A stretch of DNA of 64,000 nt from an uncultured Chthonomonadaceae bacterium (GTDB lineage Bacteria > Armatimonadota > Chthonomonadetes > Chthonomonadales > Chthonomonadaceae): contig CAWFQB010000001.1 of assembly GCA_963817895.1 (NCBI GenBank), forward strand, positions 1,216,001 to 1,280,000, given 5' to 3'. Positions within the stretch are counted from its first letter, which is position 1; every line of letters begins with the position of its first letter. A model generated the notes under the pieces. It was not told the origin of the DNA. It worked only from the letters and a program-made list of their open reading frames with translations, and made no database searches. The position numbers and the translations under genes were made by a program. Below, piece by piece: positions 2-55,155 of this stretch.

Positions 2-1381
2 CCTCACTCCGACTGGTACTACCACATTCAGCACCCCCGCGAACAGGAGCGCGGACAGGACTTTCAGGAAGACTTATACACGCCCGGAACCTTGTCGCTA
101 TCTCTTACGCCCGGTCAATCCGTTGTCGTTGTCGCCACGACGAAAACAGAGGAAAAGGAGAAAAGGAGAAAAGGAGAAGAGGAGAGCCAGGGAACAGGAG
201 CGGATTCATCCTTCATCCTTCATCCTTCATCCTTTGCGGGGCATCTTGCCCGTGCCGCCGAGCAATTCATCGTGCAGGTTCCGGGTGGGCGTTCCACAAT
301 CATTGCAGGGTATCCCTGGTTCGGGGATTGGGGGCGGGATACGATGATTTCCCTGCCGGGTTTGTGCCTGACAACGGGAAAAACGGACATTGCCCGCGAT
401 ACTCTGCTGTCGTTCGCGCAGTACGTGGATCAGGGGATGCTGCCCAACCGCTTTCCCGATGTCGGCGAAACGCCCGAATATAATACGGTTGACGCGACCC
501 TCTGGTACTTCGTCGCCATATATCGCTATGTGGAGGCGACGGGGGATAAAACTATCCTGTCCGGCGGCCTGTGGGAAACGCTCAAGGAGATTGTGAACTG
601 GCATCAGCAGGGAACGCGCTACAACATTCATGTAGACCCCCCCGACAACCTGTTATATGCCGGACAGGAGGGCGTTCAACTGACGTGGATGGACGCCAAA
701 TGCGGCGATTGTGTCGTGACGCCCCGTATCGGCAAGCCGGTCGAAATAAACGCGCTGTGGCATAACGCGCTGCAAATCATGGCATATTTCGCCGCTCTGC
801 TGAACGATTCCCTGTCTGGTTCGTACACACAACAGGCGCGACAGACGCAGGATAGTTTCATCTCCCGCTTCGCCCGCGCAGATGGACGCGGCTTATACGA
901 TGTTCTCGATGCGCCGCCATCAGGCCATTCCGACGCGTCCATTCGCCCGAATCAAATTTTCGCTTTGTCGCTGCCATTTCCAACCGTACAACCGGATACG
1001 CCGCTTGCATCGTCTATCATTGCTGTCGCGCGCGAAGAATTGTTGACGCCATGCGGACTGCGCACCTTGTCGCCGCGTGATCCTGACTTTCAGCCGCGCT
1101 ACGAGGGTGACGCGCTGCATCGGGACGGCGCGTACCATCAGGGAACCGTCTGGCCCTGGCTGCTCGGCCCGTTTGCGGAATCGTATTATAAAGTAACAGG
1201 CGACGCAGAAGGCGCAAAGCAGATGTTGAGTGGCTTACAGGCGCAAATGTCCACCTTCGGCATCGGCAGCCTTGCCGAAATTTTCGACGGCATGGAACCG
1301 CAGCGTCCCAACGGCTGTTACGCGCAGGCATGGAGCGTGGCCGAAACTCTGCGCGTGTGGCAACTGCTCACAACGCCGTAG
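2..1381 (+). CDS. Glycogen debranching enzyme (amylo-alpha-1,6-glucosidase family), 5'-truncated by window edge
   Basis: Frame open from nt 2 (PHSDWYYHIQHPREQERGQDFQEDLYTPG). Motifs AGYPWFGDWGRDTMISLPGL, YNTVDATLWY, QLTWMDAK, YHQGTVWPW, QAWSVAE. Confidence 0.92.
   Translation, partial: PHSDWYYHIQHPREQERGQDFQEDLYTPGTLSLSLTPGQSVVVVATTKTEEKEKRRKGEEESQGTGADSSFILHPSSFAGHLARAAEQFIVQVPGGRSTIIAGYPWFGDWGRDTMISLPGLCLTTGKTDIARDTLLSFAQYVDQGMLPNRFPDVGETPEYNTVDATLWYFVAIYRYVEATGDKTILSGGLWETLKEIVNWHQQGTRYNIHVDPPDNLLYAGQEGVQLTWMDAKCGDCVVTPRIGKPVEINALWHNALQIMAYFAALLNDSLSGSYTQQARQTQDSFISRFARADGRGLYDVLDAPPSGHSDASIRPNQIFALSLPFPTVQPDTPLASSIIAVAREELLTPCGLRTLSPRDPDFQPRYEGDALHRDGAYHQGTVWPWLLGPFAESYYKVTGDAEGAKQMLSGLQAQMSTFGIGSLAEIFDGMEPQRPNGCYAQAWSVAETLRVWQLLTTP
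149..235 (+). repeat. In-frame bipartite repeat element, copy 1: (GAAAAGGA)3-GAAGAGGA + spacer + (TTCATCC)4
   Basis: Octamers 152-183, heptamers 205-232; encodes EEKEKRRKGEEE...SSFILHPSSF inside the debranching enzyme. Confidence 0.95.
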
Positions 1382-1403
1382 TATGGAGAAAATACCATGC
1401 AGC
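1302..1403 (+). repeat. 102-bp direct repeat, copy A (3' end of debranching gene + RBS + ATGCAGC)
   Basis: Matches 2253-2354 with about 10 mismatches by manual alignment. Confidence 0.93.
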
Positions 1404-4193: not shown

Positions 4194-4196
4194 ATC

Positions 4197-5102: not shown

Positions 5103-8339
<3,237 letters not shown>

Positions 8340-8506: not shown

Positions 8507-10501
8507 TCAGAGTTCCCTCACATATTCCAGCAGGTCTTTGAGTTGTTCCGGGGTCAGAGTGGCGGCGTTGCCGTGCAGATGTTCGGGGTTGTATCTGGTG
8601 AAAATTTCTTCCAGCGTCTGGGCGCGGCCATCGTGGAGGTAGGGGGCGCTGTCGTAGGCTCCGACAAGATGCGGCACATCTATGGTGACATCTTTCGGGG
8701 TTGTGCCGATGTTTTCGCGCTTTTTCGTGCCGCCGGACATGTTGCCCACATGACAACGCGCGCACCCGCCCTGCCCGGTGAACAGAGTTTTGCCGCGCAG
8801 GGCCGCCGCCGTCATTGCGCCGTTGGCATTGCGGTAAGGGTTTGCCGGCAGGGGCGTTTCGTTGACCAGATCCCATAGCGCGTGAACTTCCGGGTGCTGC
8901 AAATGGCGCGTTTTCAATAATCCGCCCACCTCGTCATGCACGAAAACCTCGAAATCCTCCTCGCGCCCGCCCCATCCATAGGGAGCGGTCAACAGCAATA
9001 AACCGCGCAGGTCTTTGGTGTTGCGGGCGTCCATGCCGTCCTTTACATGCGCGAATTTCCACGAAAGGCCGTCCGTGCCGCCGTTGGGGTGACAGCTTTC
9101 GCAGGAAAAAAACTGACCATGCGAAACGTGCGCGCTGGCAAAAAAGAAGCGGCCTTTCAGTCGGCGGTTGGGATTGGGCGTAGCCGTTCCCAAATCCACC
9201 AATCGCGCGGTTGGCAAATCCGCAGGCGTTTTGTCTCCTGCCGCGCCGAACCAAACCGCAGGCAGAACCGTCAGCGAGTTGCCCAGATGGTTGCCGACCC
9301 AAAATTCGTGACTCTGCGGATTCAACGCGAGAGCGCGGGGATTGCACCCGACCCGAACCCGCCGAATGTCTGCCCCAACATGGAAAACAGGCAAACTTGC
9401 GCTAATCTCCCCGCCATCACTTTTGAAAATAGATTTTGGCGCGTTGGCATTTGCGGTTGAACCGGTTTCCGCTTGTGCCGAACCACTTACCCCTTTTCCC
9501 TTATCACTTATCCCTTGTAGCGGCACTGCCGCCACCTCATGCGTCCCGCTCAACGCGACATAAGCCGTTTCGCCCTTACTGTCCAATGCAATCCCACACG
9601 GATCGGACGCGCCATACTCCGGCAAATCCAAAATCAACATTCGCTCAAGGGTGGTTGGGGGTTGGTGATTGGTGGTTGGTGGTTGAACTGCATCGGTTTT
9701 CTCCTTTTCTCCTTTTCTCCTTTTCTCCTTTTCTTCCCCTAACGCGACTTCGCACAGCACATTCGACCAGAGCGTTTCCGGGCGAACCGTGGACAATTCG
9801 TTGTGGGGTTGCTGGCCGGTTATCCAGAGATGCGAACCGTCGGGAGTGAAGGCCATGCCGCGCAGGTTGATGGCGGGCAGGGGAATACGGCGGCGTTCCG
9901 CGCAGGAAGCGGTATCAATCAGGCTCAGGCTGCCGCCGAGCGAGTTGGCGCAGACAAGCGTTTTGCCGTCCGGCGCAAGGGCAAGGACACGCGGATTATG
10001 CCCGACCGGAATCCGCTGCAAGACTTTGCCCTGCGCGATGTCGAGAACCGCGACCTGATCCAACTGGCTCACGCTGACCCACGCCCGCCCATCGGGAGTG
10101 ACGGCAACACCCGCCGGTTCGCCCAACAAAGGGATTCGGGCGCGAACCGTTCGTTTTTCAATGTCTATGACGCTGATGCTGCCGGAAAACGTGTTGGCGA
10201 CAACCAGCGAATGTCCCTCCGGCGCAAGCGCAAACGCGCAGGGCTGTTCCCCGTCCGTCGGCAGATGCGCGAGAATTTTGCCGTCCGCGCCGTCCAGAAC
10301 GGCGATGTCGTTCTCATCCTGCTCGGCTACGAAAAGCTGTTTGCCGTCCGGGCGAAAGAGCAGGGCGGACGGCCCCCGCGTCCCGCCCTGCGCGGGCAGA
10401 GGCATGACAGTGGGCGCTTGTCCGAAGGTGCTGACCAGCAGCAGCGTCAAGCCGGAAGCAAGCAGGGCGGCACACAGGCTAAAAGGTTTGGTAACCACCA
10501 T
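8507..10501 (-). CDS. Secreted YncE/YVTN-type beta-propeller fused to a di-heme cytochrome c peroxidase-like domain
   Basis: Signal-like N-terminus (start 10501, GGAG RBS). Propeller repeats (P.G.A.TPDG..). CESCH and CARCH heme motifs; SAPYLHDGRA.TLEE. Confidence 0.85.
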   Translation of the reverse strand: MVVTKPFSLCAALLASGLTLLLVSTFGQAPTVMPLPAQGGTRGPSALLFRPDGKQLFVAEQDENDIAVLDGADGKILAHLPTDGEQPCAFALAPEGHSLVVANTFSGSISVIDIEKRTVRARIPLLGEPAGVAVTPDGRAWVSVSQLDQVAVLDIAQGKVLQRIPVGHNPRVLALAPDGKTLVCANSLGGSLSLIDTASCAERRRIPLPAINLRGMAFTPDGSHLWITGQQPHNELSTVRPETLWSNVLCEVALGEEKEKRRKGEKEKTDAVQPPTTNHQPPTTLERMLILDLPEYGASDPCGIALDSKGETAYVALSGTHEVAAVPLQGISDKGKGVSGSAQAETGSTANANAPKSIFKSDGGEISASLPVFHVGADIRRVRVGCNPRALALNPQSHEFWVGNHLGNSLTVLPAVWFGAAGDKTPADLPTARLVDLGTATPNPNRRLKGRFFFASAHVSHGQFFSCESCHPNGGTDGLSWKFAHVKDGMDARNTKDLRGLLLLTAPYGWGGREEDFEVFVHDEVGGLLKTRHLQHPEVHALWDLVNETPLPANPYRNANGAMTAAALRGKTLFTGQGGCARCHVGNMSGGTKKRENIGTTPKDVTIDVPHLVGAYDSAPYLHDGRAQTLEEIFTRYNPEHLHGNAATLTPEQLKDLLEYVREL
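9650..9738 (-). repeat. In-frame bipartite element, copy 3: (GAAAAGGA)4 + (CAACCAC)~5
   Basis: On the coding strand it encodes GEEKEKRRKGEKEKTDAVQPPTTNHQPPTT. Confidence 0.93.
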
Positions 10502-13800: not shown

Positions 13801-13860
13801 ATGGTGCTGACTCGCCACAATCAACACTGGCAGATGCTGGAAGCGGCGCTTCCGCTGTGA
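10831..13860 (+). CDS. Large secreted protein with repeated carboxypeptidase-regulatory-like domains
   Basis: GGAGGAG RBS, signal-like N-terminus, repeated G.(V/L)...DGKP..NA.V and TDA.G.F motifs. Confidence 0.8.
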   Translation: MRKRKFTSTRFTIKIAAVAPTLLPLTLLANPAVGQSHAQVSVQRVAPTGAAPASSAVSALIPVVGKVALPDGKPAANAQIYVTWSQNDGKQPFHKCVADANGKFETTITPAGNGKTVIVSAILVTALLPGKGIAWTQVTMGNPNLSKVQLNLMPLATLEGRLVHTDGTPNANTEVRVESLLPRVIVRNGVNPGPDTTPGAKANIVSRQAGMQQAGNFFILPLLPPDALAEQFRATTDANGKFTLNGIPRDTAVALKPGGKLAMAAGSANTFAIQDRERQNAGLFVATPTVRVKVRVFDLQTHQPVPQTHVMVAGANPLQNRAMMRVANSMNFSRFVTNASGEMTASDLLPGEYVVNVLGCMKTVHLEAGQDAPTVDIAVRHGFLKGRLLDADGKPVVNADVRLAATGNTNGRVFAFNNNVQFFNGDFGNPESGFTLTPDGKAIPSGFNGAVPTMMSRTDAEGRFTIPNMPWGSPQIRIWATKGNDLAEWSGPASKTDANLTLQLRRNVLMTVSGRLVDPQRRPLSKVTCKTLHWLSSPRSTWFATARDVTTDADGNFKVDGMERGESFSLITVGQSQFSNQLSFTGDSGPSETVSLAQNGGVENALQTLGNLPIVSRHVIPIRQDFELPRFLTCATGDGQSLGEVMVHPQDTPDEVLQSYDGSPGDQPSLPGVVAAPTPADVQAAQSVLARFDTALKTGDVDALTALTSRVSPGWSGNRQAFLQNVSLCGRVNTDEDTPTRALNFVPRSMVAALLKMAPKEAGAERAERVGEAVNAPADWVFLNRQVGDSVVTAGILHREAGEWRVVANHSFAAPIMANEMQTPTAASKWEQTATALTPELQQEARQTGELYMQAWMGADREQMRRLTAPFAALQPGNIERFRHALEHRADDGVCPLDTEEKIALLPVTNLTLWEQDWLKQLTSLNAPMNVDAPANVSVITITNNGSSENVTLVRPAVSTTSTSKPAPEKLAPGHDTAVFRYSAQGRNFLMVLTRHNQHWQMLEAALPL

Positions 13861-13870
13861 GCAGCGACGA

Positions 13871-13950
13871 AGAGCCTAGCCCAAATGGCCCTCAACCCCT
13901 GACCCCTTCTCCCAACTTTGGGAGAAGGGGAACCTATCGGAATAGGCTCT
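13871..13950. repeat. REP-like hairpin enclosed by degenerate AGAGCCTA...TAGGCTCT ends
   Basis: CCCCTTCTCCCAA-c-TTTGGGAGAAGGGG hairpin; the ends resemble the inverted repeats of the element at 34478-34579. Confidence 0.7.
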
Positions 13951-14044
13951 AAGGGGCCGTAGATGTGTGACTTCCCGCCTGCAAAAGTCGGCGTTCCCGC
14001 CGGTTCGGGAATTTAGACATTTACGGCCCCTGAATGTCTGCGCG

Positions 14045-14841: not shown

Positions 14842-15075
14842 ATGTATCAAATCACACTCAATGAAGCCACAGAACGCTTGCCGGAATTGGTACGCGAACT
14901 CAAGCAGGGCGATGAGGTTATTCTGATGGAAAACGAAATGCCTCTCGCGCGTCTTCTGCCAGTGGAACCGAAACTGCCACGCCCGCAAGCGCAACGCGGC
15001 AGCCACAAAGGAGAAATTCTCTACATGGCTCCCGACTTCGACGCCACACCGGAAGGTTTCGAGGATTATCTGTGA
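14842..15075 (+). CDS. Antitoxin, Phd/YefM-like with DUF2281-like C-terminus
   Basis: AGGAGG RBS; EA..RLPELV....G.EV....PLARL...GS.KG.I..MAPDFD..EGFEDY; overlaps the PIN gene. Confidence 0.85.
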   Translation: MYQITLNEATERLPELVRELKQGDEVILMENEMPLARLLPVEPKLPRPQAQRGSHKGEILYMAPDFDATPEGFEDYL

Positions 15076-15459
15076 TGCCGCTCATCCTTGACAGCCATGC
15101 CCTGCTCTGGTTCGCTGATGACGATCCGCAGTTACCCGATGCCGCTAAACTCCTCATCGAAAACCCTAACAACATCAAATACGTCAGCCTGATGAGCATT
15201 TGGGAAATCGCTATCAAATCAGCAAGCGGCAACCTCAAGTTAAAACGGGAAGCGGGCGTTTACCTTGCCGATGTCATGGCAAAGAACGGTTTCCTCCTGC
15301 TGAGTCCAACCTACGCCCACGCCATTCTTGCGGCGAGTTTGCCCCTGCATCACAAAGATCCTTTTGACCGTTCTCATTGCCCGGAGTTTGCATGAGAACA
15401 TGGCAATCATCAGCGCAGACGTGATTTTCGATGCTTACAGCGTAACGCGCATCTGGTAG
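15072..15459 (+). CDS. PIN-domain VapC toxin, frameshifted near 15372
   Basis: LILDSHALLW, SIWEIAIK, HHKDPFDR; the C-terminus LIARSLHENMAIISADVIFDAYSVTRIW* continues in another frame. Confidence 0.88.
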
Positions 15460-24202: not shown

Positions 24203-26849
24203 AAGGCGGGCAATGGGAACGCGGAAGGGACTGCAACTGACGTAGTTGAGGCCGATTTTGTGGCAGAACTTCACGCTTTCGGGTTCGCCGCCATGTTCGC
24301 CGCAGATGCCTAACTTGATGTCGGGACGCACCTCTTTCGCGCTGGCAACCGCCATTTGCATCAGTTTACCCACGCCCGTTTGATCAATGGTGTCGAAGGG
24401 ATCAGTCGGCAGGATTTTCTGCTCGATGTACGGCACGAGGAACTTGCCCGCGTCGTCCCGCGAAAACCCGAACGTCATCTGCGTCAGGTCGTTGGTTCCG
24501 AACGAGAAGAAGGCGGCGTTGCCGTTCGCGGGGTCGGCCAGTTGGTCGGCAACCAGACACGCGCGGGGAATTTCAATCATCGTGCCGAACATGTAGTCTA
24601 GTTCGACGCCCGCGTTGGCAATTACGTCGTTGGCGACCTTTTCCAGATTGCCGCGCACGGATTTGAGTTCGTTGACGTGGCCGACGAGCGGGATCATGAT
24701 TTCGGGATGGACTTCCTTGCCCCGCTTCTTCACGTCTGCCGCGCCCTGCAAAATGGCGCGTACCTGCATTTCGACGATGCCGGGGAATACGATGGAAAGT
24801 CGGCAGCCGCGCAGTCCCATCATCGGGTTGGCTTCGCGCATCCCCTCGACGGCTTGCAGCAGCGTCTCTTTCTTGTGCAGTTCTTCCGGATTGTTGCCCT
24901 TGTCGCGCAGTTCCGTCACCTGTACAAGCAGTTCGTCGTGGGAGGGTAGGAACTCGTGCAGGGGCGGGTCAATCAGGCGGATGGTGACGGGCTTGCCATC
25001 CATGACCTCAAAGATGCCCTCGAAGTCCTTCTGCTGAATGGGCAGCAAGCGGTCTAAGGCGTTTTTGCGAATGGTTTCATCGGTTGCGAGAATCATCTCC
25101 TGCACGATGGGCAGGCGCTCCGGCTCGAAGAACATGTGTTCCGTCCGGCAAAGGCCGATGCCTTCCGCGCCCAGATCAAGAGCCTGCTGCGCGTCGCGGG
25201 GATTGTCGGCGTTGGTGCGGACGGCCATAGTGCGGTAGCTGTCGGCCCATGTCATCAGTTCGCCGAACGCGCCGCTGACTTCCGGGGCAATCAGTTTCAA
25301 CGCGCCCACATACACCGCGCCGCTGGAACCGTCCATTGTAATCGTGTCACCCTCGCGCACAACTACGTCGCCAACCGTCACGGTTTTGGCGTCCGCATTG
25401 ACTTTGAGGCTCTCCGCGCCGGCTACGCAGGGGATGCCGAAGCCGCGCGCCACAACAGCGGCGTGACTGGTTTTGCCGCCGCGAGCGGTTAGGACGCCCT
25501 GCGCCGCCAACATACCGTGAACATCATCCGGGTTGGTTTCATCGCGGACGAGAATCACTTTGCCGCCCGCGCCGCCGTGTACGCCCTGAAGCGCGGCGGT
25601 ATCGGCATCGAAAACCACTTTGCCGACCGCAGCGCCGGGAGAAGCGGCAAGTCCGGTCGCGATTTTTTTCGCGCTGTCGAGTACGGACGGGTCAATGCGC
25701 GGATGGAGAAGTTGGTCTACATGCGAACCCGTGATGCGGTTGACGGCCTCTTCTTTGGAAATCAAGCCCTCATGCACCATGTCAACCGCGATATGCACGG
25801 CGGCAGGGCCGGTTCGCTTGCCGGAACGACACTGGAGCATGAACAGTTTGTTGTGTTCGATGGTGAACTCAATGTCCTGCATGTCCTTGTAATGGTCTTC
25901 CAGACGGTCGCAGGTTTCAATGAACTGCTTGTAGATGGCGGGGTTCTGCTGCTGCAACTCAGAAATCGGAACCGGGGTGCGGACGCCCGCTACCACGTCT
26001 TCGCCCTGCGCGTTCATCAGGTATTCGCCGAAGATGGCCTTTTCGCCAATGGAGGGATCGCGGGTAAAGGCTACGCCCGTGCCGCAATCGTCGCCCGCGT
26101 TGCCGTAGACCATTGCCTGAATGTTGACGGCGGTTCCGATGTCGTCCGGTATCTTCTCCGTGCGGCGGTACACAATGGCGCGATCCGTATTCCAACTGCG
26201 GAACACGGCTTCAATCGCCAATTGCAGTTGCTCATACGGGTCGGTGGGGAATTCCCGTCCCGCGTGGTCGCGGACGTGGGCAAGGAATAGTTCCGATACT
26301 TTTTTCAGGTCGTCGGCATCGAGTTGAAGGTCGTCCGTGACGCCCTTCTTTTCTTTGTATTCCTTGAAAATGTGGTTGTCGAAATCGTGCTTGCTCAGGC
26401 CGAACGCGACATCGGAGAGCATCATAATGAGACGGCGGTAGGCGTCGTAGACAAAGCGGGGGTTGCCGGTTTCTTTAATCAGGGCGTCAATCGTAGTTGG
26501 GTTCAGTCCGAGATTGAGTACGGTGTCCATCATGCCGGGCATGGAGAACTTCGCGCCGGAACGGACGGATACGAGCAGGGGCTTGTCACTCCCGCCGAAC
26601 GTCGCGCTCCATCTGCTTTTCGACGGCGTGAATGGCTTCGGTGACGGCGGGCATAAGGTCGGCGGGAACCTGCTTGCCGTTGGCGTAATAGGCGTTGCAG
26701 GTATCGGTGGTGATGGTAAATCCGGGCGGGACGGGCAGGCCGATGTTGGTCATTTCGGCGAGGTTGGCGCCTTTGCCACCTAACAAATCACGCATGGATT
26801 TGTCGCCCTCTGCAAATAAGTAGACTCGCTTCGTTGCTGCTGCGGTCAT
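24155..26849 (-). CDS. ppdK: Pyruvate phosphate dikinase, one frameshift near 26605
   Basis: [69 protein letters not shown]. Confidence 0.97.
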
Positions 26850-27070
26850 AGTTGGGTAGGTCTCCTTCTCAAACATTCGTAGTTTCGGAATGTGTTAGAT
26901 ATTGTACCCGAAAACGGCGGGAAGGGTTTAACGCGGGAACGAGGAGGAGTTCACCACCCGCTTCGCTAGAGGCACAGAGACACAGAGGAGGAACACAGAG
27001 GGAGAGGAACGATCCACAACTTTATAAAAGCGCGAAAGCCTTTAGGGTTCGTAAAAGTATAAGTTCCCGC

Positions 27071-30306: not shown

Positions 30307-31389
30307 ATGCAGGCGGAAGAGCAGGAGCGCGCCCAACTTGTGGCGACCATGCAAAGGGAAAAGCAGGCGCATGCCCGCCTTGTGGCGATCCTGGAAGCCA
30401 CGCCCGATCTGGTCGCCATCAACGACATACATGGTCGAATCTGTTATCTCAATCAGGCCGGGCGCAAAATGCTGGGACTGGAAGATGCCCCATCCGTTGC
30501 CTGCGCCGACAGTCCTGCCTCCCTGCCAGGCATAGATGTTTGCGATGTGGCCGATGATCTGTTTCCCATCGGCCTGGAAGACGGTTACTGGAGCGGGGAA
30601 AAAACGCTAAAGCTGGACGATGGGCGCAAACTCCCCGTTTCACAGGTGGTTGTCGCGCACAGGGAACAGAATGGTCAGCTGGGGTTTCTGTCCACCATTG
30701 CCCGCGACATCACGGAACGCAAGCAGTTGGATGCGCAGATGCAGGAGCAATTGCTCATCATCCGCGAACAAAAAGAGGCGCTGGAACAGCACGAAGCGGA
30801 GTTGATAACCATCAATGCCCGCATTGCCCGGTCCTACGCCGAATTACAGGAGGCCAACCGCAGTCTGGAAGCGCTGGCGACAACGGATGGATTGACCGGG
30901 CTTTGCAATCACCGCGCGTTTCAGCAAAAATTGGCAGCAGAATTCGACCGCAGCGCGCGCTACCACACCCCGCTGTCGCTGCTGCTCATTGACGTGGACA
31001 AGTTCAAGCCGTTCAACGATACGTATGGACACCCGGCGGGCGATGAAGTGCTGAAACAGGTGGCATCCCTGCTGCAATCCGCCGCCCGAACTACGGACTG
31101 CGTGGCGCGTTACGGCGGGGAAGAGTTCGTTGTTATTCTGCCGGAAACGGATGAAAACGGCGCATTGGAGGCGGCGGAGCGCATCCGTCTTGCCATAGAA
31201 CAGGCTCCCTGGCAGAAGCGTTCCATTACCATCAGCGCGGGACTGGCCTCCATGCGCCTGGACACCTCAAACCCCGCCATGCTCATCGAAGAGGCCGACA
31301 AAGCGCTGTACGTGTCCAAAGAGTTCGGGCGCAACTGCGTCACGCATCACGACGCGCTGCTCAATGCGTTGGTTCAGGGAAGTAGATAG
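30307..31389 (+). CDS. PAS + GGDEF diguanylate cyclase; N-terminal TM part probably starts at 30101 across frameshifts
   Basis: DGLTGLCNHR, DVDKFKPFNDTYGHPAGDEVL, RYGGEEF. Hydrophobic ORF from 30101 in another frame. Confidence 0.9.
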   Translation: MQAEEQERAQLVATMQREKQAHARLVAILEATPDLVAINDIHGRICYLNQAGRKMLGLEDAPSVACADSPASLPGIDVCDVADDLFPIGLEDGYWSGEKTLKLDDGRKLPVSQVVVAHREQNGQLGFLSTIARDITERKQLDAQMQEQLLIIREQKEALEQHEAELITINARIARSYAELQEANRSLEALATTDGLTGLCNHRAFQQKLAAEFDRSARYHTPLSLLLIDVDKFKPFNDTYGHPAGDEVLKQVASLLQSAARTTDCVARYGGEEFVVILPETDENGALEAAERIRLAIEQAPWQKRSITISAGLASMRLDTSNPAMLIEEADKALYVSKEFGRNCVTHHDALLNALVQGSR

Positions 31390-31480
31390 GTAGGTGGGTA
31401 GATGGTAGATAGGTAGAGATTACACTCTTCAATTGCGCCATGTTCTAAATAACAGAGGCTACCTATCTACCTATCTACCT
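31382..31480. repeat. Convergent inverted octamer arrays (GGTAGATA)n / (CTACCTAT)n
   Basis: Left arm 31382-31417 overlaps the GGDEF stop; right arm 31459-31480. Confidence 0.88.
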
Positions 31481-31484
31481 CCCC

Positions 31485-32939
31485 CTACTCCTCCCACGGA
31501 AACAGATCGGGCGGTTCGTTGTCGAACCGGGCCGTGACAGGCAGGGGATGCAGAGCGCGGGTGGTGTCCACGTAAAGAAAAGCGTCGTAGCGGTCGGGCA
31601 AAATGGTGGGAACGTAATTGCCCCAACGTTCCTGTTCCGGGTTGTACACCACCCCGACCGCCCGATGCCCGCGTCTGGTTCGCGCTATATCCGGGGCGTC
31701 GTCGAGCAGCAGCAGTTTGTTGCGCTCTCCCGCCTGCCGCAGAATGGCTTCCCAACTCCCCTCGCGCGCCGGGGGCAGATTCATGCGCTCCCAATCCGCG
31801 CCCCAGGAACGCCCCGCGATCACGCTGCCCTGATAAGAACCGCAGCCTACCAGAAACACGTCTTCGGGGGAATGGTGTTCCCGTGCCAACTGCCCGATAT
31901 TGTGCATGCCCTCCTCGGCCATATCTGTTGCGCGGGCGTCGCCAATGTGCGTGTTATGCTCCCACACAATGGCTTTTACAGGGCGGCGTTTGGTATTCGG
32001 TGTTCGGTGTTGGATACTCTCGCTGTGGATTGTGGATTCAGGGTTGGAAATTGTTTCTCCTTTTCTCCTTTTCTCCCCTTCTCCTTTTCTGTTTTCTGCT
32101 CCCTGCTCCGGGTGCTGCGCGTGGAAATTCATCAGGCGTTCCAGCGTGTCGAACATGTGCGTATCGCGCAGGTTCCAGGAGTCGTGTCCGCCCTGCATCA
32201 TGGTACGATAATAGGCTTCCGCGCCCTGAACGACGAGCGCGTTCTGTTCCGCCACAAAATGGGCCTCCTGCTCCGCCGCGCCGCCCGGTGTCTGGCGGCG
32301 CAGCGCGGTCAGCAGGTTCGTCACCTCATCGCGGCAGATTGTCGGGATGAATGAATCGGTAGCGCGGGCGTAGCGATGCTCGTCGCCGTAATAGGGTTCA
32401 AAGCAGTGGTACGCCTGCCGCGCCGCATCCGCCGCCTGTCCGTCCTCCTGTTCCAGATACCGCAATACCGAGTCCAGCGACTCCCACAGGCTGTATACAT
32501 CCAGACCGTAGAAGCCGACTTTCGCCGCCGGGGGCAGGCTGGCGTTGTGCTTGCGCAGCCATTCCGTCAGCGCGACAATCTCCCAATTGGCCCACATCCA
32601 CGTCGGCCAGCGTTGAAAATCGCTCAACACTTCCCGCGCCGAGGTTCCACACTCGTTATAATCCTTGACATAGCGATTCACGCAGTAACAGTAGGGCCAG
32701 TCGCCCTCCACGCCGATGAACGAGAACCCTTTTTCCTGTATCAGCCGCTGCGTCAGCCACATTCGCCAGACATAGTATTCCGAAGTGCCGTGCGTGGCCT
32801 CGCCCAACAGCACATAGCGCGCGTCGCCGATACGCTCCATCAGCGGGTCCAAATCGGTAGGCGTTTCCAGCGGCTTTCCCTGCTCGGCGCACCATTGCGC
32901 CAGTTCCACATCCTGCGCTCTCGATTTCGGTGTCAACAT
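31485..32939 (-). CDS. Erythromycin esterase family protein
   Basis: VLLGEATHGT, VEGDWP, RWPTWMWAN, FYGLDVYSL, WNLRD.HM, IVWEHNTHIGDARAT. Confidence 0.93.
   Translation of the reverse strand: MLTPKSRAQDVELAQWCAEQGKPLETPTDLDPLMERIGDARYVLLGEATHGTSEYYVWRMWLTQRLIQEKGFSFIGVEGDWPYCYCVNRYVKDYNECGTSAREVLSDFQRWPTWMWANWEIVALTEWLRKHNASLPPAAKVGFYGLDVYSLWESLDSVLRYLEQEDGQAADAARQAYHCFEPYYGDEHRYARATDSFIPTICRDEVTNLLTALRRQTPGGAAEQEAHFVAEQNALVVQGAEAYYRTMMQGGHDSWNLRDTHMFDTLERLMNFHAQHPEQGAENRKGEGEKRRKGETISNPESTIHSESIQHRTPNTKRRPVKAIVWEHNTHIGDARATDMAEEGMHNIGQLAREHHSPEDVFLVGCGSYQGSVIAGRSWGADWERMNLPPAREGSWEAILRQAGERNKLLLLDDAPDIARTRRGHRAVGVVYNPEQERWGNYVPTILPDRYDAFLYVDTTRALHPLPVTARFDNEPPDLFPWEE
31985..32100 (-). repeat. 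In-frame composite element, copy 4: degenerate (GAAAAGGA)n + (AATCCAC)2 + (AACACCG)~4
   Basis: Encodes AENRKGEGEKRRKGETISNPESTIHSESIQHRTPNTKRR just before KAIVWEHNTH. Confidence 0.9.
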
Positions 32940-33325: not shown

Positions 33326-34411
33326 ATGAGCGACAGGAAAATTCGCGTTGCCCTTATCGGCGTGGGCAATTGCGCCTCCTCGCTGGTGCAGGGCGTGGAA
33401 TTTTATAAAAACGCCAGTGAAACCGATTTTGTTCCCGGCCTGATGCACGTCAATCTGGGCGGCTACCATATCCGCGACATCGAGTTTTCCGCCGCCTTCG
33501 ACATCAACGTTACCAAAGTCGGCAAAGACCTGAGCGAAGCCATTTTCGCGCAGCCCAACAACACGTACCGCTTTTCGCCCGTTCCCCCGCTCAACGTGCC
33601 GGTTCAGCGGGGCATGACGCTGGACGGATTGGGCAAATACCTGCGCGACGTGATTGACGAGTCGCCCGAACCGACCGCAGACATTACCCGCATCCTGAAA
33701 GAGACCCGAACAGATGTGGTTGTTTCCTATCTTCCCGTCGGTTCGGAGATGGCGACGCAATGGTACGTGGAGCAGATACTGGCGGCAGGCTGCGGGTTCG
33801 TCAACTGCGTCCCCGTATTTATCGCGTCGCAATCCTGCTGGCAGCAGAAGTTTGCCGAACGCGGCCTACCCATCATTGGCGACGATATTAAATCACAGGT
33901 GGGCGCGACCATTACGCACCGGGTATTGACGAACCTGTTTCGGGAACGGGGCGTCCGGCTGGATCACACGTATCAGCTCAATTTCGGCGGCAACACGGAC
34001 TTTATGAACATGCTGGAACGCGAACGGCTGGAATCTAAAAAAATCTCCAAGACCAATGCCGTCACCAGCCAGTTGGATTATCCCATGTCCAATGGCGACG
34101 CGCATGTCGGGCCAAGCGATTACGTGGAGTGGCTTCAGGATCGCAAATTCTGTTACATTCGCATGGAGGGGACGACGTTCGGCAACGTGCCCCTCAATTG
34201 TGAACTAAAACTGGAAGTGTGGGACTCGCCCAATTCGGCGGGCGTCGTGATTGATGCCCTGCGTTGCATCAAACTCGCCCTCGACCGGGGCATCGGCGGC
34301 GCGTTGGGCAGCCCGTCCAGCTACTTCATGAAAACGCCGCCCACCCAAACCACCGACAGCGAAGCCCATGACCGCGTAGAAGCCTTTATTCGCGGCGAAA
34401 TCGAAAGGTGA
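33326..34411 (+). CDS. ino1: Myo-inositol-1-phosphate synthase
   Basis: [52 protein letters not shown]. Confidence 0.96.
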
Positions 34412-34614
34412 GTTGTTAGGTTGTGAGTTGTTAGGTTTGTCGTATTTACGCTCGGCCACTCCTAACCTAACAACTTAGAGCCTATTCCAATAGGCCGGGT
34501 ACAGAGAACGTACCCGTCTGAGTGGCCTGCGGCCAAGCGTCCTTCGGACGCAAATGCAATCGCCTATTGGGATAGGCTCTTAATACCCTAACAACCTAAC
34601 AACCCAACAACCTA
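34408..34614. repeat. Convergent inverted arrays (GTTGTTAG-type / CCTAACAA-type); right arm interrupted by a MITE
   Basis: Left arm 34408-34437 overlaps the ino1 stop; right arm 34461-34474 and 34587-34614 ends at the next ATG. Confidence 0.85.
34478..34579. mobile_element. 102-bp MITE with GAG... termini and TTA target duplication (IS5/IS1031-like)
   Basis: GAGCCTATTCCAATAGGC / GCCTATTGGGATAGGCTC (17/18 match); TTA at 34475-34477 and 34580-34582. Confidence 0.78.
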
Positions 34615-35397
34615 ATGACCTACAACCCTACTACCGTGGCCGAACTCGGCCCCTGGTTTCACAACATTGTTCTGCCGGACGGAACGCAGACTGCGCCCGA
34701 CCACTTTTTAGGCAGTGACTTTCCGCGTAACAAGTGGCAGTGTCTGGCTCCACATCTGCCTGCGGATTTAACAGGCTGGACCGCGCTGGACATCGGCTGC
34801 AACGCGGGCTACTATACGCTGGAACTGGCGAAACGGGGAGCGCATATCACCGCCATTGACGTCAACCCGTTTTATCTGGCGCAGGCGCAATGGGCGTGTG
34901 AGCAGTTTGGCTTGCAGGAGCGGGTGACGTTCCAGCAAACGGGCGTGTACGAACTGGCGCAATCGTCAGAAAAATACGACCTGATTCTGTTTTTAGGCGT
35001 GTTTTACCATTTGCGCTATCCGACGCTTGCCCTTGACATTGTGGCCGAAAAGACCAATCGCCTGCTCGTATTCCAAACCCTGACGATGCCCGGTATGGAG
35101 GTTTATCCTGCCGAAGAGGACATGGACATTGACCATCGCGAGGCCATGCAGGAACCGGGCTGGCCCCAAATGGCGTTTATCGAGCATCGGCTGTGCGGCG
35201 ACCCGACCAACTGGTGGGCGCTCAACCATGCCGGTATTCTGGCCCTGCTGCGCTCCTGTGGCCTGCGAACCCTTGCCACTCCCGGCCATGAACTCTATAT
35301 TTCCGAACCCGATCCCGAACACCCCTCCTGCATGACTACGTGGAATTGCTGGGAGTATGAGGCGGTAACAAAGAGAGGAAGTGAGAGTGGAGAGTGA
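34615..35397 (+). CDS. SAM-dependent methyltransferase, TIGR04290-like
   Basis: LGPWFHNI.LPDG.QTAPDHFLG, ALDIGCNAGYY, LFLGVFYHLRYP, DPTNWW. Confidence 0.9.
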   Translation: MTYNPTTVAELGPWFHNIVLPDGTQTAPDHFLGSDFPRNKWQCLAPHLPADLTGWTALDIGCNAGYYTLELAKRGAHITAIDVNPFYLAQAQWACEQFGLQERVTFQQTGVYELAQSSEKYDLILFLGVFYHLRYPTLALDIVAEKTNRLLVFQTLTMPGMEVYPAEEDMDIDHREAMQEPGWPQMAFIEHRLCGDPTNWWALNHAGILALLRSCGLRTLATPGHELYISEPDPEHPSCMTTWNCWEYEAVTKRGSESGE

Positions 35398-35449
35398 GAG
35401 TGAGAGTACCACTCGCATTGTCTCTCACTCTTCACTCTCCACTCTCACT
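35380..35449. repeat. Convergent inverted heptamer arrays (GTGAGA(G))n / (CTCTCAC)n
   Basis: Left arm 35380-35407 encodes the last codons and stop of the methyltransferase; right arm 35422-35449. Confidence 0.88.
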
Positions 35450-40837: not shown

Positions 40838-40944
40838 TAGGTTGTTAGGTTGTTAGTTGTTAGGTTGTTAGGTATTCAATTGATAGTCTCGCTACGCAAA
40901 TGTAAATGTGTACTCTTGCATCGTCCTAACAACCTAACAACCTA
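40838..40944. repeat. Convergent inverted octamer arrays (TAGGTTGT)n / (CCTAACAA)n
   Basis: Arms 40838-40873 and 40925-40944; the second overlaps the MFS stop. Confidence 0.9.
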
Positions 40945-42375
40945 TTCCGGTAACGGCTTGCCTTTGGTTTCGGGCGCAAGCGCCAATCCCACAAATCCTA
41001 CGAGGTAGATAAAGGCCACGATGGAAGCGGCCATGCGAAAACCGTAATCGGGACGCGCGGCGTCCGCGAAATGTTGGGCCAGTTTGCCGAGCGTGAAGGG
41101 GGCAAGCGCGGCCAGAACGCGGGCGCAGTTGTAGGCGAAACCGCAGCCGGTGGCGCGTAATCGCGTGGGGAACAGTTCGGGAAAGAAGACCGTGTACGCG
41201 GCGAACGGGCCGAGCGTGCAAAAGCCCATGATAGGAACCAGAATCAGCAGGGAAGTCATGTTATGCGCCTGCCAGAATGTTAGTTGAATGGCGGCGAAAG
41301 CCAGATAGAAGAACATGGACAGAACGCCACGCCGCGTGTAGCGTTCGGCAAGCGTGGCGTAGGCATACATGCCGCAAAACGCCCCGGCCTGCTGCGTCAG
41401 AAACACGTAACTCTGATACTGCGCGAGGGTTTGTTTGGGCAGATTCAGGGGCGCCAGCGCCACTTTGGTCAGTTCCGGCGTCCAAAACGCAATTCCCCAC
41501 AAGCCGCCTACGCCCGCCGTCGCCATAAGCGTCGCGGCAATGGTATTACGGCGAATGACGGGATCGCGAAACAGATTTGGGATACCGCCGAGTTCCTGAC
41601 CTCCGGTTTGCCGCGCCGCGTCTTTGGCTTCCTGCCACTTTTCCGGCTCTTTTATGGATCGGCGTATCCACAGCACGAGCAACGCGGGTAACGCTCCGAC
41701 CGCAAACGCCCACCGCCACGCTTCTCCCGATATGTGAACGCTGTTGAGCGTGAGATTAATCAGCGCGGCAAACCCGTTGCCCACTGCGGAGAGCGCTTGC
41801 AGCAGTCCCAACGCCATCGGACGAGAACGGGAGGGGAATACTTCCGATACCAGAGCCGCGCCCGCCGCCCATTCGCCGCCAATCCCCAGCCCGGTCAGAA
41901 ACCGAAACAGGCCGAACATCGGAACGGTATGGGTCAGGCTGCTCAAGCCTGTAAATATGGAGTAGATGAGAATGGTGGCGATCATGGTGCGCGTACGGCC
42001 CATCCGGTCGCCCAACACGCCGAAGATAAACCCGCCCGCCGCCCAGCCGAGCAGAAAAATGGCGGTCATGTTCGCGCTGTTCTGCGTCACCAATGCCTGC
42101 TGCGCTTTAGTCAGCACTGTAGAAGGCGCAGTTCCAAACAACAGCGAGGTCAACGCGCTGTTGCGCACCAGATTGAACAGGTTCTGATCCATCGAGTCGA
42201 ACAGCCAGCCGAGCGCGGAAACAAACAGCACCAGCCAGGCGTAGCGCGGCACACCCTGATACCAGCGGGGGGCAAAGGATGAAGGATGAAGGATGAAGGA
42301 TGAATTCTCTCCTGTAATCTCCTCTTCTCCTTCTCTCCTTTTCTCCTTTTCTTCACTTTTACGCGGGTCGGCCAT
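40942..42375 (-). CDS. MFS transporter (sialate/carboxylate-like)
   Basis: LGWLFDSMD, GVLGDRMGRTR, RFLTGLGIGGEW, ELFPTRLRATG. Confidence 0.93.
   Translation of the reverse strand: MADPRKSEEKEKRREGEEEITGENSSFILHPSSFAPRWYQGVPRYAWLVLFVSALGWLFDSMDQNLFNLVRNSALTSLLFGTAPSTVLTKAQQALVTQNSANMTAIFLLGWAAGGFIFGVLGDRMGRTRTMIATILIYSIFTGLSSLTHTVPMFGLFRFLTGLGIGGEWAAGAALVSEVFPSRSRPMALGLLQALSAVGNGFAALINLTLNSVHISGEAWRWAFAVGALPALLVLWIRRSIKEPEKWQEAKDAARQTGGQELGGIPNLFRDPVIRRNTIAATLMATAGVGGLWGIAFWTPELTKVALAPLNLPKQTLAQYQSYVFLTQQAGAFCGMYAYATLAERYTRRGVLSMFFYLAFAAIQLTFWQAHNMTSLLILVPIMGFCTLGPFAAYTVFFPELFPTRLRATGCGFAYNCARVLAALAPFTLGKLAQHFADAARPDYGFRMAASIVAFIYLVGFVGLALAPETKGKPLPE
42274..42355 (-). repeat. In-frame bipartite element, copy 5: (GAAAAGGA)-type x4 + (TTCATCC)4
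   Basis: Encodes EEKEKRREGEEEITGENSSFILHPSSF in the MFS N-terminal tail; same heptamer as copy 1. Confidence 0.95.
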
Positions 42376-43570: not shown

Positions 43571-43744
43571 ATGTCTGACTGGATTAAGTGGATTCTCGCG
43601 TTCGTGCTGATCTGGGTTGTGGGCGGTATCGTGATTCACCTGCTGGCCGGGTTGGTTCATATCGCGATTACGCTGGCCGTAATTGTTCTGTTCTGCTATA
43701 TCGTTTACGCGGTGGTTCGCGCCGCGTCGAGGCAGAAGATATAG
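43571..43744 (+). CDS. Small 57-aa two-TM membrane protein (absent from the ORF track)
   Basis: GAGG RBS; MSDWIKWILAFVLIWVVGGIVIHLLAGLVHIAITLAVIVLFCYIVYAVVRAASRQKI*. Confidence 0.8.
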   Translation: MSDWIKWILAFVLIWVVGGIVIHLLAGLVHIAITLAVIVLFCYIVYAVVRAASRQKI

Positions 43745-43823
43745 GTTGTTAGTTGTTAGGTTGTCAGGCAGGAAAGCGCGAGCCTATCGCCTGAATGACT
43801 AACAACTAACAACTAACAACCTG
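43742..43823. repeat. Convergent inverted arrays (TAG(G)TTGT)n / (ACTAACA)n
   Basis: Arms 43742-43768 (starts at the TAG stop) and 43798-43823 (next to the comB stop). Confidence 0.88.
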
Positions 43824-46010: not shown

Positions 46011-46022
46011 AGGAAACTCCAG

Positions 46023-46140
46023 AGTAGATGGGTAGATGGGTAGATAGGTAGATAGGTAGGAGCCTTGCATAAGATTGTCTGGCTTAATATAAAGTAACGA
46101 ACAAGCGCCATCTACCAATCTACTCATCTACCCATCTACT
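46023..46140. repeat. Convergent inverted octamer arrays (GGTAGATG/A)n / (CATCTACC)n
   Basis: Arms 46023-46060 and 46109-46140; the second encodes the plsC C-terminus SRWVDE*. Confidence 0.9.
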
Positions 46141-46788
46141 CTCCTTCAGCAACTCCTGAATCGCTTCCATAATCCGCGCGGCGATTTCATTGCGCGGCAT
46201 ATCGGCGGGGAAGGTCAGCGGCTTGCCGAAGGCGACGGTGAGCCCCGCGCGTTTCAATTTGTTCTGGCCGACGGGCATCATTTCATACGTGCCGGATATG
46301 CCGACCGGCACGACGGGCGCGCCGCTTTTCTGCACAAGCAGGCCGATTCCCGCCTGTGGGGCCTGCAATTCGCCGTTGGGAGAGCGCGTTCCTTCCGGGA
46401 ACAGTCCCACCGCTTCGCCTTTTGCCAGCAGATCCAGAACGGCGCGAATCATAGCGCGGTCTGCCGTGCCGCGCTTGACCGGAATCGCGCCAATGCAGTT
46501 CATAAAATAGCGGGTGAGAGGATTCTGCCACAACTCCACTTTGGCGACGCCCCACATTTTACGCTTGACCCGCAACGTGGCCCAGCCCAAAACAGGGTCT
46601 ATGTTACTGGCATGGTTGGCCGCGAAAATTACGGCGCCCGATGCCGGAACATTTTCCAGCCCGACCACTTTGCACTTGCCGTACCACCCGAAGAAGCCCC
46701 GCGCCGCTGCAGCAAATACATGGTGCATCACAGCCATGTCCGGGCGCGGCGTCAGGTTTACGGTATATTCCGGCGCGCTTTTAGTCAA
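46120..46788 (-). CDS. plsC: 1-acyl-sn-glycerol-3-phosphate acyltransferase
   Basis: ANHASNID, FPEGTRS, PVVPVGI.G. Confidence 0.9.
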   Translation of the reverse strand: MTKSAPEYTVNLTPRPDMAVMHHVFAAAARGFFGWYGKCKVVGLENVPASGAVIFAANHASNIDPVLGWATLRVKRKMWGVAKVELWQNPLTRYFMNCIGAIPVKRGTADRAMIRAVLDLLAKGEAVGLFPEGTRSPNGELQAPQAGIGLLVQKSGAPVVPVGISGTYEMMPVGQNKLKRAGLTVAFGKPLTFPADMPRNEIAARIMEAIQELLKESRWVDE

Positions 46789-52144: not shown

Positions 52145-52232
52145 AAGGCTCTTTGCCTGTAGCATTTTGTCAATCTATCGAGTATACTGTTCGATATACG
52201 ACTTTGTAAACGAAAGGCTGAACACCGCTTTT

Positions 52233-55155
52233 ATGAATGAACTGAATATTCGCCCCGCCGCGACCGAAATACCCCGCCCCGAACACCCGCGCCCCGACTT
52301 TATGCGCCAGCCCTGGGTGAATCTCAACGGCACATGGCGCTTCACGTTCGACCCGCGCAATGTGGGCGAACAGGATAGATGGCATCGCGTTACGCACCCG
52401 GAACTTCGGACGCAGGCGGGCATTTTGAACTCCGACCCGTTTGGCGATCATATTGTCGTCCCGTTTCCATGGGAAAGCGCATTGTCTGGCATCGGCGAAA
52501 CCGAGTACAAGGGCGCGGCGTGGTATCAGCGATTGTTGGAAGTTCCCGAAGCGTGGGCTTCCGAAGACGCAGGCAGTGGCCCCAAAAACGCGCGCGGCCT
52601 GCCCGGAATGGAAGAATCGGCCACATCCGTTACGGCGTTAGGCGCGAATGTCGTCTGGCGCGTCCGTCCGTTTCTGTGCTTCGGCGCGGTGGATTGGAGC
52701 GCGAAAGTATGGATCAACGGGCGCTTTGTGGGCGAACACGTTGGCGGCTACACCCCCTTTGAACTGGATATTTCGCGCTACGTCCGTCCCGGCAAGCCCG
52801 CCACGCTGACCGTCCGGGTTTACGACGCCTGCGACGCGGATACCCTGCTCGGCAAGCAGACAACCGACTGGTACAACCATTCCGGCGGCATCTGGCAAAC
52901 CGTATGGCTGGAGGGCCGCGCCCCGACTTACATTCAGCATATCCACGTCACGCCCAACATCGAAACCGGGGAAGCACTGTTCGCCGTCACTGTTGTGGGC
53001 GCGGAAAACCAACCCTGCCGCGTCACCATTTCCTCACCCAAAAACGAATTCCCCGATACCCATGCCGACGTGTCCCCTGACGGAACCGCTCTCCTCCCCA
53101 TTTCCGTTCCCAATCCCCACCTCTGGTCCCCCGAGCATCCACATTTGTACGACGCGGTGGTACGTTTGGAGGAAGAAAAGGAGAAAAGGAGAAAAGGAGA
53201 AGAGGAGACAGAAAATACGCAGTCGAAAATCGAAAATCGAAAATCGAAAATCGAAAATGACGAAGTCGTTACCTACTTCGGACTGCGCAGCGTGACGCGG
53301 GGAAAGTGGAAGGACAAGCCGTATGAGTACGTTTTGCTCAACGGCGAACCGGTGTATTTGCGGGGCGCGTTGGATCAGGCGTTTACGCCGGACGGCCTTC
53401 ATGCCTATGCGACGGATGACGCGATACGGCAGGATATTCAGATCGCCCGCGACATGGGGCTGAACATGCTGCGCTGCCATATCAAGGTGAACGATCCGCG
53501 CTACTACTACTGGGCGGACAAGTTGGGCGTGTTGATGATGTACGACCTGCCTTCCGCCAGTTTGTACACGCCGACGGCGCGGGCGCACTGGGAAGCGACA
53601 ATGCGCGACGCCTTTCAGCGCGATGGCTCGCACCCGTGCATTATCGCGTGGATTCTGTTCAACGAAACGTGGGGGCTGGAAGAGCATCAGACGCCCGCAA
53701 GCTGGAACTGGGTACGGGAGATGTTCGCGCTGGCAAAATCGCTGGATTCGACCCGGCTGATCGAGGACAATTCCGCGTGTCTGTACGACCACGTTCAAAC
53801 CGACATCAACACGTGGCACTTCTACATCAGCAATTACGACCGGGCGCGGCGGCACGTTCAGCGCGTGGTGGACCTGACGTATGAGGGTTCGCCGTTCAAC
53901 TATGTCGGGCACGAGTACAGGCATGTCGAGGGTTCTGAGGAGTTCAAGCAGGGAATCGAGCCGCTGCTCAACAGCGAGTACGCGGGATTGGGCGCGTCAG
54001 GCGGCGACAAGGACATTTCGTACACGTTCAAGTACCTGACGACGGAACTGCGCCGCCATGCCAAAATCTGCGGCTACGTGTACACGGAACTGACCGACAT
54101 CGAATGGGAACACAACGGCTTTGTCAATTACGACCGCTCGGCCAAAGGTTATGGCTACGAACAGGCGTTTCCCGGCATGAGCGTGGCCGACCTGAACGGC
54201 GCGGACTTCATCGGGCTGGACTGCGCCCCCTGCAAAACGCTTGCGCCGGGTTCCGCGTGGAGCTGCGCCCCTGTTCGTGTCGCATTGGGACAAAAAGCGC
54301 ATGGAAACCGCGCAGGTCTGCTGGCACATTACTTCCATTGACAATTCGGGCGAAACACATTTGCTGGACGAGGGCAGGCGCGAAATCCGCCCGGAACAGT
54401 ACGATGTAACGGACGCGGGCGCGCTGGAAATAACCTGCCCCAACGGACACGCGCTGCTGACAGTCGCGTTCTGGCTGGAAGATGAACACGGCAACAGTTC
54501 GCGCCCGCAACTACGTCAACATAGATGTACACGACGGCAAGCCGCTAAGACCGCTGGAACGGACGGCACAGGGCTACGCGCTGCGGTTCGCGCCGGGCGA
54601 TTATCTGGAAACCTCGCGGCAAAATCCCACCGTAGGCGGAAACGGCAACAAATTCGTTTGTGGCGGCGCGGGTTGGATAGATTACGCGCTCAAACTGCCG
54701 GAAAGAGTCGACGCGAACGCGATTCAGGGCCTGCGCGTTGTGTTCGAGGCGGGCGTCAAGGACGGCGGGCGGGCGCATGGGCTGGAAGCGGACATGGCAC
54801 GAAGTCCGGCAACAGCTACCCGCAAACCCATGCCGCGCAGAAGGGCAGCCGGGTTCAAGTGAGCATCAACGGCGTATCGCTCGGTGAGGCCACGATTGCC
54901 GACGATCCCGCCGATGCGCGGGGCGTGTTGAGCGCGCATTTGCACGAAAACTTCGAGTTCGCGTCCTACGGCTTCCTGACAACGCTTCAGGTAGATGCGG
55001 CAAAAGCGCGTGAGATTCTGGCGGCAAGCGAAAACGGCGAGATTATTGTCCGCTTCGAGGTTCCCCGCGTTGCGGGAGCCAACGGCCTGAATCTATACGG
55101 CGAACGTATGGGCGCGTACCCCGTCGCCCCGACTGTGTTTCTGGATATGGAATAG
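52233..55155 (+). CDS. Glycoside hydrolase family 2 with C-terminal extension; several frameshifts between ~54260 and 54800
   Basis: PRPEHPRPDF.R..W.NLNG.W, FGAVDW, GIWQTVWLE, LWSPEHPHLY, RGALDQ, LFNETWG, LNSEY. Confidence 0.9.
53169..53257 (+). repeat. In-frame bipartite element, copy 6: (GAAAAGGA)3-GAAGAGGA + (TCGAAAA)5
   Basis: Octamers 53175-53206, heptamers 53223-53257; encodes EEEKEKRRKGEEETENTQSKIENRKSKIEN. Confidence 0.95.

Follow-up and report, generated by a model that had tools for sequence, protein, structure and literature searches.

A window of 64,000 nucleotides from an uncultured Chthonomonadaceae bacterium (contig CAWFQB010000001.1, positions 1,216,001 to 1,280,000) carries six short repeat inserts lying in frame in six unrelated genes. 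Each consists of an octamer block and, after it, a heptamer block, and together they turned out to be those members of a hairpin family that lie in coding sequence; the family is tied to cassettes that carry four-helix-bundle genes of the intervening sequence (IVS) type. The family has a two-armed anatomy, its arms turn over at fixed sites, and the words used inside genes are filtered. It appears moderately probable that the inserts descend from IVS-type cassettes that have lost their gene, with nested insertion and arm copying as the means of renewal and coding selection as a filter. The preliminary description of the window had found the inserts and missed the link to the cassettes. The genome of the window (G000) is a draft assembly of 7.5 Mb, 81% complete, in which 7,552 genes were called with our own dicodon caller, with approximate boundaries; the main comparison was made with a sister genome (G002).

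All six inserts are present at the positions reported earlier, sense to open reading frames (ORFs) (Table 1), and the host-gene names agree with the Pfam results. According to Pfam, all hosts are protein-coding genes; no insert lies in a 23S rRNA helix, and an Rfam scan of the whole window gave no match. The first insert stands between the GDE_N and GDE_C domains of the debranching enzyme, the second in the loop joining the two halves of the resistance-nodulation-division (RND) pump (query 493-546 vs. MdtB 502-517), and the sixth at the end of an Ig-like domain match in the glycoside hydrolase family 2 (GH2) protein. In an AlphaFold model the propeller insert is placed between two strands, with a predicted local distance difference test score (pLDDT) mostly below 50. 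The copy in the major facilitator superfamily (MFS) gene is present but not inside the domain: it occupies an N-terminal extension, about 8 codons past the ATG. The host sites examined are loops, linkers or termini. A common reading frame of the octamer was indeed observed, yet it is partly automatic, since three octamers run through each of the frames, and the cyclic peptide is the same; in the 86 blocks deep inside genes, the first octamer unit is in frame 0, 1 and 2 in 57, 26 and 3 cases, respectively, and the esterase copy is in frame 1. The six inserts fold with -3 to -26 kcal/mol, without the long stem of inverted termini of an IVS, and none of them holds a PF05635 gene between its arms. 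The proposed partial pairing of the octamer with TTCATCC is seen in two of the six (about -25 kcal/mol) and not in the other four (-3 to -15 kcal/mol). That the inserts are an assembly or sequencing artefact is hardly conceivable: the genome is a draft, but inserts stand at the same codons in assemblies made independently, reading frames are uninterrupted, and the bias in strand agrees with the direction of the genes.

The octamer blocks are not a product of chance, because 202 of them were counted genome-wide as compared to none in one local shuffle. They comprise 109 in-gene sense, 6 in-gene antisense, 52 intergenic and 11 gene-edge blocks, along with 24 in uncertain 5' ORF extensions. The reported absence of intergenic and antisense copies thus holds within the window and not genome-wide. 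Many blocks are one arm of an inverted pair, and all 6 antisense ones have an inverted partner nearby. The octamer itself is one among dozens of 7-8-base words in this genome. The elements are built of about four G-rich 7-8-mers, a spacer and about four C-rich 7-8-mers; arrays mostly have 3-5 units, with length quartiles of 30-36 bases for in-gene and 25-33 for intergenic arrays. The order of the arms is strict: 463 of 501 multi-array clusters run left-then-right and none right-then-left, and typing by base content gives 471 left-then-right, 26 single-type and 4 mixed. For all 39 words that come first in an inverted pair, the complement comes first in no case (0/39). An exact test, which overlooks near-complements, found 129 inverted vs. 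88 non-inverted clusters between genes and 12 vs. 118 inside genes; the median fold is -46.9 kcal/mol for intergenic (n = 216) and -19.9 kcal/mol for in-gene clusters (n = 125). Hairpins are rare between divergent genes (15/221 in G000), and AATGC is enriched at spacer ends (47/436 vs. 7/330 mid-spacer windows).

Overlapping matches to the octamer pattern number 368 in G000, 148 in G002, 7 in G015, 1 in G001 and 0 in 27 other genomes. A search of 185,579 species genomes for the octamer combined with TTCATCC returned two stretches, both in one uncultured Chthonomonadaceae assembly, and the named close homologues belong to the Chthonomonadaceae. Five sequencing runs, of DNA or unlabelled, hold 0.06-0.22 of the words, and no RNA run was among the holders listed.

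The distance from an intergenic arm to a stop codon is ≤10 bases in 155 of 238 cases. This could point to a function at the RNA or translation level (internal Shine-Dalgarno pausing, frameshifting or regulator binding sites), as could the pairing of the octamer with the anti-Shine-Dalgarno sequence (-8.7 kcal/mol) and the continued occupation of sites between species. However, the arms that replace the octamer pair weakly (-3 to -6.5 kcal/mol; GGGAACA -5.8, GATACGA -3.0), an ATG follows 4 of 86 blocks vs. a background of 12.5%, the words are not conserved, and the insert is missing from 31 distant propeller homologues, which have a short beta-turn instead. The Shine-Dalgarno-like role suggested in the preliminary description is not supported by these figures. 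On the folding and anti-Shine-Dalgarno energies, internal Shine-Dalgarno sites and octamer/TTCATCC pairing were rejected as a general explanation, and an RNA-level function seems very unlikely.

Derivation from cassettes is suggested by genes for four-helix-bundle proteins of the 23S-IVS family (PF05635). G000 holds two such genes and four GxxExxY genes, all between inverted arrays. PF05635 matches were found in 16 of 31 related genomes, with none in G001 (97% complete), and repeat arms are present at most of the 13 PF05635 loci listed. At locus L109 of G002 the PF05635 gene lies between inverted arrays of the inserts' own octamer, and the orthologous site in G000 is a gene-less nested hairpin. 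Similarly, the site orthologous to the L088 cassette bears a GATACGA hairpin, and that orthologous to the L102 cassette is empty. A full cassette, a hairpin of a different word without a gene, and an empty site are all found at orthologous positions. The two cassette sites of G000 correspond in G002 to a two-gene insert at one and a 9-10-mer hairpin at the other. Like those of an IVS cassette, the termini of the inserts are tandem 7-8-mers. One and the same word serves as cassette arm, gene-less hairpin and translated half-element, and the derivation of the inserts from IVS-type four-helix-bundle cassettes is likely. The L109 protein matches PDB entries 2gsc and 2rld, with five chains per entry; the family is presumably kin to Avd, a protein of diversity-generating retroelements (DGRs).

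The two-gene insert in G002 (L127, contig C24, ~82,670-83,580) retains a leftover right arm, and by eye its genes resemble a ribbon-helix-helix (RHH) antitoxin and a MazF-like toxin. GxxExxY genes were rejected as a specific driver, since 6 hits in G001 go with nearly no octamer there, and the arms around these genes are 9-10-mers. No family with arrays on both sides was found among the 30 largest families of short paralogous proteins.

In G002, arrays of other words occupy five of the six window sites (four are given in Table 1), and the esterase site is a non-repeat loop there. The octamer, taken earlier to be the constant part of the design, is not constant, since the same sites in G002 have left arms of the GGGAACA, GGGAAAA or GAAGAGGA type. 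G001 has non-repeat loops at the four window sites compared; the assumption that it is free of repeats was dropped, because its loci hold some arrays. For a wider count, 1,028 clusters of G000 were compared with 1.095 Mb (about 1/7) of G002, both flanks being matched in 112; three long rows were then dropped ahead of the counts. An array is present in G002 at 25 of 26 in-gene sites, mostly of other words. Where both genomes have a hairpin (n = 29), the word of both arms has changed in 22; at word-changed sites the spacers are new throughout, and the flanks are conserved, ~75-95% alike. In addition, hairpins alternate with tRNA-like genes at C4:223064 and in other tRNA-like clusters of G000, and their words change in G002.

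Single proteins reveal the same turnover. At the propeller insert site, seven close homologues have seven arm combinations; a Joint Genome Institute (JGI) metagenome scan with the propeller protein added 10 distant loci (28-36%), none of them useful. The GlmS loop carries different arm combinations among close relatives, including a decayed two-arm insert in P0127, and peptides of left or right type in several distant homologues. GlmS homologues P0132, P0209, P0212-P0215 and P0236 represent other lineages with other words in the same loop, some of them in matched pairs. In trees built with the inserts masked, and with the arms read from peptides, sister proteins 3-8% apart have one arm in common but not the other: the window propeller and P0001 (support 100, core distance ~0.08), GlmS P0121 and P0122 (89, ~0.03), and GlmS P0124 and P0125 (99, ~0.03). 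Exchange of arms at fixed codons outpaces a divergence of a few percent in the host proteins, and occupied sites have probably undergone repeated arm replacement.

The swaps would be merely apparent if arrays arose by slippage and base-by-base drift, with template-switch homogenisation within and between arms and no mobile cassette, the four-helix-bundle genes just sitting in such hairpins. Under slippage one would expect orthologous words to be somewhat closer than random, variant units to appear in mirror form in both arms, and decayed loops to occur, as they do at several G001 sites; all of this is observed. On the other hand, proteins only 3-8% apart have words that differ at 2-4 positions or in the length of the unit, spacers change wholesale between flanks ~75-95% alike, the vocabulary is limited and species-skewed with identical odd variants at many loci, and the arm order is fixed. 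We consider slippage with drift quite improbable; it fits less well than cassette derivation, and the same applies to an RNA-level function.

How arms may reach occupied sites is suggested by nested elements. Among the 15 clusters with at least three arms and a matched pair, an outermost pair is matched in 13. Locus L054 of G002, orthologous to C14:314804 of G000, is a four-level nest of 8-10-mer arms, in which the outer three pairs are matched and the innermost is mismatched. One 77-base spacer recurs at four loci. [quoted passage not shown] A motif of ~27 bases starting with CCGGGCGTCCACCC was noticed at 22 places in G000 (e.g., C3:342980, C5:157155, C8:27626 and C4:214082). It lies inside other repeats, namely in-gene heptamer arms, repetitive extragenic palindromic (REP)-like palindromes and, as judged by eye, an apparent IS605-type end, as if it parasitised repeats.

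Alternatively, arms could be written de novo by a templated telomerase-like polymerase, perhaps aided by the pentameric four-helix-bundle protein. Such an enzyme would add about four G-rich units onto each 3' end of a loop break before the ends are rejoined, one template giving a hairpin and different templates a mismatched pair. From this one would expect arms strictly in left-then-right order, growing from the centre, with unique spacers and changes of one arm at a time; it also agrees with the tight arm length (mostly 3-5 units) and with the five chains per entry in the PDB matches of the L109 protein. However, whole elements are sometimes copied together with the spacer, and reverse transcriptase does not track the arrays: RVT_1 hits number 1 in G000, 1 in G001, 2 in G002, 0 in G005 and 0 in G015, for which reason it was rejected as a co-distributed driver. 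De novo writing is accordingly regarded as quite unlikely. Y1 (HUH) transposase does not track the octamer either, PF01797 being present in all five genomes tested, with or without the octamer.

The last component of the cassette-derivation reading is the filter inside genes. Among 351 in-gene arrays a stop-bearing word occurs in 13 and a word of the most hydrophobic class in 15; nearly all arms lack a stop, most are hydrophilic, and most do not complement each other. An 18-base variant of a stop-bearing arm, itself without an in-frame stop, is found at 12 loci, 10 of them in-gene sense, which points to copying between loci and selection. The hosts include glmS, carB, trpE, miaB, mtaB and queG (20 of ~100 hosts were scanned); NCBIfam (E 1e-30) names 9 of these 20 and does not list L109. 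As with MITEs and RPEs, the elements stand in frame in genes that are unrelated, at sites that tolerate them. The earlier suggestion of a non-random supply of modules combined with selection for tolerant loops gains support from the arm order, the word filter and the loop positions in the hosts. Frame 0 is used by the last octamer of 67 of the 86 blocks, a figure that the coding filter does not explain.

The steps of renewal can be sketched as follows. A newcomer element would enter the loop of a resident one, or else an arm would be copied in by recombination from another dispersed array, and older arms and cargo would be lost afterwards. Between genes both arms would remain matched. Inside genes the survivors would be one-step changes that keep the frame open and produce neither a long mRNA stem nor a hydrophobic peptide, hence mismatched pairs such as octamer plus heptamer. 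The four-helix-bundle protein is a candidate mover.

Several observations weigh against this scheme. No mobilising enzyme was identified, and G000 is 81% complete. Most of 275 hairpin spacers have no partner elsewhere; there are 36 matching pairs, many of them through nested 9-10-mer arms, and such mostly unique spacers are odd for whole-unit copying. By eye, no target-site duplication was seen at a few filled/empty pairs with flanks 10-25% diverged. The arm swaps between sister proteins are known from peptides, not DNA. Orthologous words are closer than permuted ones for intergenic left arms (2.58 vs. 2.99±0.15), edge arms (2.11 vs. 3.11±0.21) and in-gene right arms (2.10 vs. 2.69±0.21), in-gene left arms being the exception, so retention or stepwise drift contributes. 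The filter is incomplete as well: the stop-free hydrophilic ACACAGAG has 0 copies in genes vs. 41 between genes, and ATCTCGT is rare in genes (2), although it is as hydrophobic as the common TTCATCC (39). Finally, in-gene hairpins do exist (6/19 in G002, and GlmS P0132). A pool of frame-fitted in-gene arms, copied among genes, would explain both the absence of some harmless words from genes and the frame bias of the last octamer.

A dedicated system, in which the pentameric four-helix-bundle protein reads 4-5 units and writes or swaps arms singly at the loops of resident elements, is rather unlikely. If true, the heptamer repeats of bacteria would have in it their missing source, and new loop peptides would be generated continually in about a hundred proteins per genome, including housekeeping enzymes. 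The present data point to a protein that may be involved, to hairpin loops as a possible substrate and to an outcome that can be measured. They also carry a warning for annotation: EKEKRRKGEEE, SSFILHPSS, IRDTRYE and LSTLNSQ are products of DNA repeats, not protein motifs.

Besides the inserts, the window contains at least seven matched hairpins of the same two-armed family between genes, one of them at a gene boundary (Table 1). An unpaired left arm of the ACACAGAG type, a word family unseen inside genes, lies at 26930-27000. A non-tandem intergenic palindromic repeat at 13870-14030 (-89 kcal/mol over 13860-14040) has many copies in G002. Other features are an HNH endonuclease gene (56755-57258), a PIN-domain gene with a small upstream partner (14842-15395) and a 69-aa N-terminal fragment of pyruvate phosphate dikinase (PPDK) at 26586-26795.

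Table 1. Two-armed repeat elements of the window, with the arms at the same site in the sister genome G002
Feature	Position	Strand	Arms	Fold (kcal/mol)	Same site in G002
Insert 1, debranching-enzyme gene	148..234	+	left arm GAAAAGGA x4 148-185; spacer; right arm TTCATCC x4 205-234		GGGAACA + ATGATGA / TCATCAC + CAACACC
Insert 2, RND pump gene	6637..6709	+	octamer arm 6637-6676; AATCGGC arm 6678-6709		GGGAACA + AACCACC-type arms
Decayed left-type arm, second propeller-gene site (relatives with fresh arms there)	9486..9516	-			
Insert 3, beta-propeller/cytochrome gene	9650..9736	-	octamer arm + CAACCAC arm		
Matched hairpin, intergenic	31381..31483	.	GGTAGATA-type	-50	other words
Insert 4, erythromycin-esterase-family gene	31984..32090	-	octamer arm 32054-32090; right arms AATCCAC 32024-32038, AACACCG 31984-32013		
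Matched hairpin, intergenic	34408..34478	.	GTTGTTAG-type	-28	
Matched hairpin, intergenic	35380..35449	.	GAGAGTG-type	-50	GTTGATA arms
Matched hairpin, intergenic	40838..40945	.	GTTGTTAG-type	-48	
Insert 5, MFS gene, N-terminal extension	42275..42354	-	octamer arm 42318-42354; TTCATCC arm 42275-42304		GAAGAGGA/GAAGAAGA-type arm + AATCCAA-type arm
Matched hairpin, intergenic	43742..43822	.	GTTGTTA(G)-type	-41	GGCATTA arms
Matched hairpin, gene boundary	46022..46141	.	GGTAGATG-type	-66	GTAGTCA arms
Insert 6, GH2 gene	53170..53258	+	octamer arm 53170-53208; TCGAAAA arm 53221-53258		GGGAACA + AATCGGC, junctions shared with G000
Matched hairpin, intergenic	63257..63380	.	GGTGTTC-type	-70	

Several known systems resemble these elements in part; the statements on them refer to the accessible portions of the papers cited. 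The IVS in the 23S rRNA of Coxiella burnetii has an S23p gene, inverted termini with 2-3 tandem heptamers and a 28-bp stem, and is cleaved by RNase III (PMC4990558). L109 and the G000 cassettes share with it a four-helix-bundle gene between inverted tandem-repeat termini, whereas the six inserts are gene-less, sit within the coding part of mRNAs, where they are translated in frame, and have unmatched arms. RPEs are units of ~150 bp with a conserved peptide (PMC10969869). They and MITEs are likewise non-autonomous repeats that stand in frame in unrelated genes and add peptides; in contrast, the inserts described here consist of modules of tandem repeats, their spacers are unique for the most part, and target duplication was not seen. 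Without matched termini, a cargo gene or a conserved interior, the six inserts belong neither to the IVSs nor to the MITEs and RPEs.

With the simple repeats of other bacteria the family shares dispersed arrays of 7-8-mers, mostly of 3-5 units. Geobacter metallireducens has four or five tandem 7-8-mers in opposite-strand pairs, one family occurring also within genes, and these arrays were read as regulator binding sites or RNAs (PMC2700814); a regulatory or RNA role was likewise proposed for the paired arrays of the Beggiatoaceae (PMC4679880). The four-unit 7-8-mers, their pairing and their location in and between genes are common to Geobacter and the present genome, whereas the cassette link, mismatched pairs and arm turnover are, as far as the accessible text of that paper goes, described only here. 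Xanthomonas GGGAATC and Nostoc GGGGA(C/T)T repeats (PMC4692102) and Beggiatoaceae TAACTGA repeats (PMC4679880) show the same four-unit preference, convergent inverted pairs, proximity to stop codons and an ORF strand set by stops; convergent inverted pairs near stop codons are found here in the intergenic members and not in the six inserts. In those genomes, however, there is one word per genome, mostly intergenic, and the Xanthomonas repeats are 83% conserved between species, as compared to dozens of words, ~350 in-gene arrays and fast replacement in the present one. Paired four-unit arrays are therefore already published. Single-arm swapping inside proteins is apparently new: no account of it or of mismatched in-gene pairs was found in the literature searched, which mostly excludes subscription journals and does not cover the Geobacter supplements. 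Where the four-unit heptamer arrays so abundant in bacteria come from is left open in the papers cited, and the present genus offers a testable handle on this question.

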